Under the pieces are notes generated by a model. The model was not told where the DNA came from and made no database searches. It saw only the letters and a list, made by a program, of their open reading frames with translations. Below are positions 23,652 through 24,620 of a stretch of 38,575 nucleotides of DNA, piece after piece. Source of the stretch: Escherichia phage Huey; sequence record PQ850609.1; one strand, given 5' to 3'. Each line of letters begins with the position of its first letter. Position 1 is the first letter of the stretch. A program made the position numbers and the translations under genes.

Positions 23652-24620
23652 TTAGTAGGTTATTTTTGTTGCGAATACTTCGCCTTTTACGATGGCTGTT
23701 ATGATATTTTTAGCAACATCTTCTGATGCGCCAACCTTGATAATGTCAGCAAGTATTTTGTTATTTACTTCTTTCCGGTGAGCTTTATCCTTTGCTCTAC
23801 ACTCTTCTTCTTCCTTGATTCTTTTTTCTTCTGCTATTCTGGCTTGCTCTTTTGCTTCAGCCTCGCGCCGGATTCGTTCAGCCTCCTCCTGTGCTTTTCG
23901 GCGTTCTGCTTCAATTGCCGCCTGCTTTTCTCTTTCAGCTCGTTCTGCTGCCTCTTTTGCTTCGCGCTGTGCTCGTTGCTCGGCTTCAATGCGTTCACGC
24001 TCTGCACGTTCCGCTGCGGCCTTAGCTTCTGCTTCTCGCCTTGCTGCTGCTTCAATTTCGGCTTTTGCCTTTGCTTCGGCTTCTGCTCTGGCTTTCTCTT
24101 CAGCTTCTCTTTTTAAGCGTTCTTCATGCTCTCGCTTTTCCTGCTCCGCTTTGAGTCTTGCCTCTTCTCTTTGGCGGTCAAATTCGCGATCCATCAAAAT
24201 CGCTATTTCATGGTCAGACTCAATTTGCTTTGCGAGAGCTTCAGCTGCTGCCTTAGCTTCTTCTTCGGCTTTAATCCGCGCCTGTTCCTCTTCATAATCA
24301 GTAAGAGGCTGGCGTGCCTTGGCTTTCAGTTCATCAAGGCGATCGCGCACTGTCTTGCGGTTAGCATCAATTAGCTTTGGAATTTCCTTCAGTTCAGCAA
24401 CAAGGTCTTTGCCAAGACCATCGAGATATGTTTTCGTCTGCGCAACTTTATACGCCAGAGAGGCGATCTCCTTTCTGCCCTTTGCCGTTGTGATATCAGG
24501 CACAAAGGACATAACTTCACGTTCAACCTTTTGAAGGATTTCTTCAATCTGGTCTGCAGACTGAAATACAGTCATTGCATTTGCTTTTTCAATAACAACT
24601 AAATCTGTTACTTCACTCAT
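23652..24620 (-). CDS. Coiled-coil protein with Glu/Arg/Lys/Ala-rich low-complexity core (possible DUF1351-like, recombinase-associated)
   Basis: ATG 24620 with GGAGG SD; N-terminal ~110 aa resemble the DUF1351 pattern as I recall it, then ~150 aa of AEAKA/ERAERE repeats. Confidence 0.5.
   Translation of the reverse strand: MSEVTDLVVIEKANAMTVFQSADQIEEILQKVEREVMSFVPDITTAKGRKEIASLAYKVAQTKTYLDGLGKDLVAELKEIPKLIDANRKTVRDRLDELKAKARQPLTDYEEEQARIKAEEEAKAAAEALAKQIESDHEIAILMDREFDRQREEARLKAEQEKREHEERLKREAEEKARAEAEAKAKAEIEAAARREAEAKAAAERAERERIEAEQRAQREAKEAAERAEREKQAAIEAERRKAQEEAERIRREAEAKEQARIAEEKRIKEEEECRAKDKAHRKEVNNKILADIIKVGASEDVAKNIITAIVKGEVFATKITY
23800..24250. repeat. Imperfect in-frame tandem repeats (coding low complexity)
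   Basis: Reiterated GCTTCnGC / CTCnCG motifs on + strand encoding E/A/K/R-rich heptads on - strand. Confidence 0.6.

Follow-up and report, generated by a model that had tools for sequence, protein, structure and literature searches.

Escherichia phage Huey (sequence record PQ850609.1) has a lambdoid, P22/Sf6-like genome with its early-left operon on the minus strand of the window analyzed here, that is, the whole stretch of 38,575 nucleotides (nt). The minus-strand gene at positions 23652-24620 of this window encodes a 322-amino-acid (aa) protein of the Agt family (PHROG 1376), in which two conserved end domains are joined by a long, charged helical tract and which, at the level of the family, is associated with genes for single-strand annealing proteins (SSAPs). 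From these features we infer that the Agt-family protein is a non-enzymatic, rod-like adaptor or modulator of the recombination and anti-host-nuclease module of the phage, a reading to which we assign a probability of roughly 0.55. The features of the locus are summarized in Table 1.

The family assignment rests on full-length similarity. The profile phrog_1376, to which PHROGs assigns no function, matches residues 1-322 (E-value (E) 8.8e-109, PHROG profile search), and a tblastn search with the N-terminal domain (N-domain) led to Agt of phage phi80 (Lula; NC_021190.1, ABF05_gp39), also 322 aa long, to which the Huey protein is 50% identical across 322/322 aa (BLASTP, E 2e-63). Phi80 Agt, Orf53 of phage D3 and the Huey protein are all full-length matches to phrog_1376. 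Genes with 98-99% DNA identity are present in Sf6 (gene 33, 98.5%), HK544, mEp213, mEp234, CUS-3, IME10, HK633 and Stx1a-converting phages. Sf6 gene 33, D3 Orf53 and the homologs in HK544, mEp213, mEp234, CUS-3, HK633 and the Stx1a phages are near-identical or clear orthologs that show no substantive difference from the Huey gene; Sf6 gene 33 and its homologs lie after tL2A and before cIII, as in Huey. These homologs are uncharacterized, and their labels vary from hypothetical protein to TolA, antitoxin and coiled-coil protein.

The gene is carried by 530 of the 5,426 complete Escherichia coli genomes (~10%), nearly always as a 969-bp copy, for which the usual annotation is “cell envelope biogenesis protein TolA” and, in some cases, “coiled-coil domain-containing protein” (PGAP). 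A profile search with the N-domain (E <= 1e-3) yields at least 5,789 clusters at 50% identity, and the 77 diverse prophage homologs that were studied come from gamma-, beta- and alpha-proteobacteria. By these comparisons, the Huey gene is a widespread, already catalogued phage gene and a new member of the barely characterized Agt family. Among the public Agt-family entries (P0001-P0082), many are short or marked “partial”, and a few are chimeric, for example, P0019, P0049 and P0058, in which the N-domain is joined to a sequence that is Abc2-like or of another kind; a homolog search with the isolated N-domain as query yielded only proteins of at most 212 aa, many of them marked partial.

What has been said of the function of this family comes from phi80, where agt is annotated as “anti-toxin for Gam; Mog (modifier of Gam)” and the next gene, gamL, as “toxic without Mog”. 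GamL of phi80 is reported to be an inhibitor of both RecBCD and SbcCD, with agt as its antidote. Antidote activity is known for phi80 Agt only. Literature searches on Agt and GamL returned nothing useful, most mentions of “GamL” referring to the long isoform of lambda Gam, and the Agt family is not among the topics of a 2025 survey of lambdoid recombination modules. Scans against Pfam, NCBIfam and PADLOC detect no enzyme or defence domain in the Huey protein, and a sequence search of solved structures with the protein and the N-domain profile gives chance-level coiled-coil matches alone.

The minus-strand open reading frame (ORF) ends at 23652, and the ATG at 24620 is its credible start because a GGAGGA ribosome-binding site and an intrinsic terminator precede it and a longer, TTG-started ORF would run through that terminator, which is graded strong at 24661-24640. 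With this start supported, the coordinates 23652-24620 of the original prediction are correct. The Sf6 annotation has the matching layout, with terminator tL2A followed by gene 33, and transcription of the Agt-family gene would be mainly N-antiterminated, from pL. The gene is directly promoter-proximal to cIII and thus occupies the position of lambda ea10, as had been proposed. Lambda Ea10 resides in the identical slot of the pL operon; it is a protein of 122 aa compared to 322 aa, its sequence is unrelated (E 1.4), and a relationship between the two proteins was rejected.

The three-part architecture envisaged earlier is confirmed, with the N-domain followed by approximately 130-170 residues dominated by Glu, Ala, Arg and Lys and by a small C-terminal domain (C-domain). 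In the alignment of 127 family members, the basic N-domain shows the motif VPDxTTAKGRKEIASLAYKVAxxKTYLDxxGKDL...IDAxRK..RD.LD.L...RxPLTxWE, with R49, K63, K71 and P105 invariant. A less charged motif (residues 131-150) lies within the long helix and is the sole dip in E/R/K/A/Q content inside it; in this motif, H137, E138, A140, L142, F147, D148 and R149 are nearly invariant across enterobacterial relatives. The C-domain, which has no Pfam match, retains the motif HRKxxNxxxxxxLxxxGxxEExAKxxxxAIxxGxxxxxxIxY in the family consensus and in at least 75 diverse prophage homologs, and the C-terminal ending I-x-Y/F is conserved family-wide. The ratios of nonsynonymous to synonymous polymorphism (pN/pS) are 0.06 for the N-domain (aa 1-110), 0.19 for the tract and 0.33 for the C-domain, indicating purifying selection in all regions.

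The similarity between relatives is distributed unevenly along the protein. Identity to phi80 Agt is 40% in the N-domain, 65% in the tract and 38% in the C-domain. Among the relatives compared by region (P0199, P0103 and L001), the corresponding values are 95, 62 and 93% for the Enterobacter homolog and 59, 80 and 98% for P0199. The gene is thus a mosaic, with identities of the regions that vary independently between relatives, and this implies recombination inside the gene, probably within the low-complexity tract.

Glu (29%), Ala (25%), Arg (17%) and Lys (12%) together account for 83% of residues 151-280. Sequence windows between residues ~105 and 280 contain at least 65-100% E/R/K/A/Q, except for the motif at 131-150, and the stretch 105-130 is charged as well. 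Thus, both the size of the tract (~150 aa) and its composition, reminiscent of TolA domain II, are as originally described. Opposite charges are paired at i/i+4 22 and 28 times, compared to 11.6 +/- 2.4 expected, and other spacings are not enriched. The strongly hydrophobic residues I/L/V/M/F/W/Y account for only 8 of the 130 tract residues (6%), and Fourier analysis finds hydrophobic power at period 3.5 equal to the shuffle mean, that is, no heptad periodicity. Judged by these patterns, the tract carries the signature of an ER/K single alpha-helix (SAH) and not that of a canonical coiled coil, so the term “coiled coil” under which the protein was originally described is probably wrong. SAH domains occur in myosin VI, myosin X and caldesmon. 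The phage tract resembles them in its very high E/R/K content, near lack of a hydrophobic seam, i/i+4 pairing and predicted uninterrupted helix; it differs in being unusually alanine-rich and in belonging to a phage rather than to a motor protein, and its monomeric state is a prediction.

A canonical two- or three-stranded coiled coil, or else an intramolecular antiparallel hairpin, is an unlikely alternative form of the tract. The few hydrophobic residues and the 3.5-residue power at the shuffle mean argue against the coiled coil, and the excess of opposite charges at i/i+4 is the hallmark of ER/K single helices, although alanine and hydrophobic residues do show a periodicity near 3.7 (power 1.1; the 95th percentile of the shuffles, calculated for period 3.5, is ~0.67) and PGAP applies the coiled-coil name to some copies. 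The hairpin could have its tip at residues 176-182, a weak point of the AlphaFold2 (AF2) model built with 127 relatives. This model consists of helices 12-20 and 22-37, a loop at 38-45 and long helices 46-175 and 183-295, with a mean predicted local distance difference test score (pLDDT) of 87 that rises to 91-96 in the C-domain. Foldseek superpositions of the model give root-mean-square deviations near 100 Å, which suggests an extended rod rather than a folded-back structure.

The charged tract is present in 77 of 77 diverse homologs (median 145 aa, range 47-194); it thus characterizes the family, varies little in typical length and is not peculiar to Huey. The composition, the missing heptad periodicity and the charge-pair excess recur in these homologs. 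Across the family, the tracts contain 10% hydrophobic residues, have a net charge near zero and show an i/i+4 charge-pair z above 3 in 65 of the 77 proteins.

The tract had also been taken to be encoded by imperfect tandem repeats (23800-24250) capable of expansion and contraction by slippage, and neither claim stands. Tandem Repeats Finder (TRF) reports only weak rows, with scores of 43-48, and 29% of codon-shuffled tracts attain the observed best score, so that the DNA signal does not exceed chance and the apparent repeats are a chance product of codon composition. The longest exact direct repeat is 12 nt. At the protein level, the tract matches itself best when shifted by 8 residues (z = 4.5 compared to shuffles), a quasi-period that reflects the charge pattern and not a repeated unit. 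The length comparison drew on 80 IMG/VR relatives with 98-100% identical N-domains: among the 72 complete copies, 70 encode 322 aa, and the remaining two (306 and 284 aa) are 1-nt frameshifts, not indels in the tract. In Enterobacter, Cronobacter, Citrobacter and Salmonella, homologs that are 76-78% identical also consist of 322 aa.

In a collection of 5.8 billion proteins, rare in-frame variants of 245-333 aa do occur, most with junctions in repeats of 3-13 aa, as is expected for occasional recombination between short repeats. Examples are the tandem duplication of 11 aa and the loss of 22 aa between copies of AAERAERE (HK633) or of 77 aa between copies of EAKAAAE, and events of this kind are what a slippage-prone contingency gene, with a tract that expands and contracts to vary the protein, would produce. 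Such a gene is nevertheless very improbable here, given the chance-level TRF result and the short exact repeats, the uniform length of the close relatives and of nearly all E. coli copies (969 bp), the tract pN/pS of 0.19 and the maintenance of tract length across proteobacterial classes. The contingency locus was rejected because the tandem array is not above chance and length in close relatives is nearly invariant.

The name that the NCBI records most often give to the E. coli copies would make the protein a TolA-like component of the cell envelope, an explanation to which we attach next to no credence. Apart from the name itself, it draws on the A/E/K/R-rich helical tract, which is compositionally similar to TolA domain II, a long Ala/Glu/Lys-rich helix; the likeness is one of composition only. 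TolA has a membrane anchor, a C-terminal domain of its own and a tol-pal context, and the Agt-family protein lacks all of these. It contains no transmembrane anchor (the maximum Kyte-Doolittle mean over 19 residues is 1.07, within the C-domain), matches no TolA family in Pfam or NCBIfam, and is encoded in a phage early-left pL operon, not in tol-pal. The TolA-like envelope protein was therefore rejected for the lack of an anchor and of TolA domains and for the phage context. A component of a defence system was likewise rejected, there being no PADLOC match.

In Huey, cI and cro, N and orf156 are followed by the Agt-family gene, cIII, kil, arf-like orf66 and the genes for a Rad52-type SSAP, SSB, an HNH-like protein and Abc2. 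In several other phages, the connection is tighter. The family gene is located directly 5' of GamL-Bet-Exo in phi80 and Klebsiella phage Mulock and directly 5' of Erf and the YqaJ exonuclease in D3 and phiLM21, with probably the same Erf/YqaJ arrangement in JBD44, where the neighbours are unannotated and have sizes as in D3; in V039C it adjoins Erf and SSB, and in GF-2, Sf6 and Huey it lies a few small genes away from Erf. In a set of 75 diverse prophages, the first large downstream ORF encodes an annealing protein in 35 (ERF in 18, RecT in 10, Rad52 in 3 and the Sak4-type AAA_24 in 4), and the second encodes the YqaJ exonuclease in 20, SSB in 6 and a further annealing protein in 9. Altogether, an SSAP gene is found within the next two large downstream ORFs at 44 of the 75 loci, so that the association with Erf/RecT/Sak-type recombinases proposed in the original prediction holds at the family level. 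Two observations on neighbouring genes may be added. The Huey annealing protein is labelled “Erf-like” in PHROGs and in the Sf6 annotation and matches Pfam Rad52_Rad22 (E 5e-26), not ERF; and the HNH-like gene between ssb and abc2 in the recombination module encodes Cys-rich zinc-ribbon motifs.

The phi80 annotation suggests a narrower function, that of a dedicated GamL antitoxin. Phi80 Agt and the Huey protein have in common the length, the three-part architecture, the PHROG and a location in the early-left operon 5' of recombination genes. Phi80 agt, however, directly precedes gamL-recT-exo, whereas the Huey gene precedes cIII-kil-arf-Rad52-type SSAP-SSB-HNH-abc2, and tblastn finds no GamL, lambda Gam, Bet or Exo in the Huey window. 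Where gamL is detectable, which is the case for 5 of 78 diverse family members, its start lies within ~10 nt of the stop of the family gene, and Klebsiella phage Mulock has the same abutting arrangement. At the other 73 of the 78 loci there is no detectable GamL, nor is there any in the 80 close relatives (Abc2 is encoded in 69 of them), and a function dedicated to GamL is accordingly quite improbable. Linkage to annealing proteins being common and GamL being rare, the family is tied to annealing modules generally, not to GamL.

A different relationship is raised by DUF1351 (PF07083), which the N-domain had been thought to resemble. In Firmicutes phages, DUF1351 genes adjoin Erf, RecT or Sak4 genes, and a role analogous to that of Mu Gam has been suggested (PMC8093625); we confirmed the context beside annealing-protein genes in 7 of 8 phages. 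The DUF1351 proteins (PHROG 674), encoded by Firmicutes and Bacteroides phages, are similar in size to the Agt family (~280-350 aa) and occupy the same Erf/RecT/Sak4 niche; many Agt-family members directly adjoin genes of these annealing proteins, whereas in Huey three small genes intervene. The hmmscan check does not bear out the resemblance. The Pfam DUF1351 model (gathering score 27.8 bits) matches neither the Huey protein (E <= 1), nor its N-domain (E <= 10), nor any of the 127 relatives (E <= 0.01), and gives 118.9 bits for the positive control, gp48 of phage phi9805. With no Pfam match and a tract of nearly invariant length, the two outcomes that were to count against it, the original prediction largely falls, and the link of the family to recombination survives.

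More sensitive comparisons leave a divergent DUF1351 protein, with homologous N-domains, membership in one superfamily and one function, as a possibility somewhat short of even odds. An hhalign comparison of the family N-domain profile with an 11-sequence DUF1351 alignment gives a weak match (probability 46%, P value 2e-4, score 36.7) that still exceeds all controls, namely reversed profiles (20-22) and 60 column shuffles (13.7 +/- 2.8, maximum 24.8), and that pairs the T..K, R and basic-P-hydrophobic-x-x-aromatic-E motifs of the two families, albeit at the cost of 21- and 7-residue gaps. The N-domains of both families also weakly match the same region of phrog_16469 (Agt family, E 2.5e-3, 1.1e-3 and 1.1e-2; DUF1351, 1.1e-3 and 3.8e-2), although PHROGs separates the families themselves (1376 and 674). 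The predicted N-terminal topologies are alike, each with a 16-residue helix, an 8-residue loop and a long helix, and the niche beside annealing-protein genes is common to both families (PMC8093625). In DUF1351 proteins, too, a charged helix is located ahead of a small C-domain; this helix, however, is short, and it is accompanied by a globular middle region with a W.NK motif that is not present in the Agt-family protein. Foldseek searches produced no cross-match between the DUF1351 model (pLDDT 70) and Agt-family models in either direction. Taken with the lack of a Pfam match in the protein, its N-domain and the 127 relatives, these differences make remote homology of Agt and DUF1351 possible and somewhat less probable than its opposite. 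As separate observations, the N-domain (24231-24620) has a weak, non-significant match to positions 13-124 of the 243 in phrog_10477, “exonuclease” (E 3.4e-4), and DUF1351 N-domains have weak, non-significant matches to PHROGs for a RecBCD inhibitor and a Mu Gam-like protein (E ~0.007-0.01).

On this evidence, the Agt-family protein is predicted to be cytoplasmic, all-alpha-helical and probably rod-shaped, and would be produced from pL after antitermination by N. It would have no catalytic activity and would serve the recombination and anti-host-nuclease module of the phage as an adaptor or modulator, the two end domains binding partners that possibly include DNA ends or single-stranded DNA coated with SSB, the annealing protein, and a host nuclease or its phage inhibitor. 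The tract, if fully helical, would be ~20 nm long, given ~130-145 residues at 0.15 nm each, and would keep the two ends at a set distance. Because Huey encodes Abc2 and a Rad52-type annealing protein in place of GamL, the partner must be broader than GamL.

Several points weigh against this interpretation. The functional data come solely from phi80 and concern GamL, which Huey lacks and which is detectable beside so few diverse family members (5/78); and cIII, kil and the arf-like gene separate the Huey gene from that of the annealing protein. The predicted template modelling score of the AF2 model is low (0.36), and AF2 monomer models cannot tell a single alpha-helix from a helix that forms coiled coils. 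Foldseek yields no informative structural relative, with only family members among the viral models and a best E of 2.2 in the PDB. Finally, the alanine stripe with a period of ~3.7 could support helix-helix packing and thus leaves some room for packing or oligomerization.

A broader proposal, tentative and rather doubtful, is that the Agt family and DUF1351 are two branches of a pan-bacterial superfamily of non-enzymatic, rod-shaped accessory proteins. Encoded beside unrelated SSAPs (Erf, RecT/Bet, Rad52 and Sak4), in the slot of lambda Gam or Mu Gam, these proteins would use an ER/K spacer of conserved length and would modulate RecBCD/SbcCD or protect DNA ends. If this is true, the function of the superfamily has so far been glimpsed only as the phi80 “GamL antidote”.

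The immunity region (25243-27271) pairs a lambda-type N with cI and cro that we take, from recognition of 434 sequences, to be of the 434 type (cI also matches the Pfam HTH and S24 families), and is thus of mosaic make-up. The gene orf156, without a match in Pfam or PADLOC, is present in only 19 of the 80 close relatives, and its place is taken up in Sf6 by gene 34, a ral-like gene and gene 36, so this is a variable accessory-gene slot. The ORF at the position of lambda rex, also without a match in Pfam or PADLOC, may encode a secreted lysogenic-conversion or exclusion protein, to judge by its start.

Table 1. Agt-family gene of phage Huey, its parts and its early-left neighbours (positions in the window)
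Feature	Position	Strand	Basis
Coding sequence of the 322-aa Agt-family protein (Sf6 gp33 / D3 Orf53 / phi80 Agt ortholog; PHROG 1376)	23652..24620, stop codon included	-	ORF list, PHROG and BLAST matches
Ribosome-binding site GGAGGA, 3 nt 5' of ATG	24624..24629	-	Read from sequence
Intrinsic terminator just 5' of gene, lambda/Sf6 tL2A equivalent	24633..24661	-	Terminator scan; 8-bp G+C-rich stem, T7 run
Basic conserved N-terminal domain, aa 1-125	24246..24620	-	127-member alignment; ordinary composition
Less charged conserved motif QIESDHEIAILMDREFDRQ within long helix, aa 131-150	24171..24230	-	Alignment, composition
ER/K(A)-type charged alpha-helical tract, aa 151-280	23781..24170	-	Composition, charge pairs, AF2
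Small C-terminal domain, aa 281-322 (42 aa), aromatic last residue	23655..23780	-	Family alignment, AF2
cIII	23481-23627	-	Downstream early-left; Pfam/PHROG
kil ORF	23375-23578	-	Downstream early-left; Pfam/PHROG
arf-like orf66	23190-23390	-	Downstream early-left; Pfam/PHROG
Rad52-type annealing protein	22474-23181	-	Pfam/PHROG
SSB	22012-22473	-	Pfam/PHROG
HNH endonuclease-like gene	21529-22008	-	phrog_2340
Abc2 anti-RecBCD	21222-21515	-	Pfam/PHROG
Lambda-type N	25243-25566	-	Pfam N36, E 1.5e-26
orf156, between N and tL2A-like terminator	24764-25234	-	phrog_1636 match
ORF downstream of 434-type cI, lambda rex position	25919-26395	-	Signal-peptide- or lipoprotein-like start

The protein described here is very common, being encoded in ~10% of the complete E. 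coli genomes, in thousands of proteobacterial clusters and in Stx1a-converting and P22-like phages, and most of its records are named “TolA” because of composition alone. Current views are not overturned by these observations; some modest interest attaches to the recombination link and to the conserved ER/K spacer as leads to a function that would be that of an adaptor. Given that the family accompanies four unrelated families of annealing proteins, it may represent an accessory factor hitherto missing from accounts of phage recombination or of anti-nuclease defence, and such a factor could bear on the efficiency of recombineering and on the conflict between phage and host over RecBCD and SbcCD. 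The conserved length of the tract would, in addition, offer a natural case from bacterial viruses for the idea of the ER/K helix as a “ruler”.

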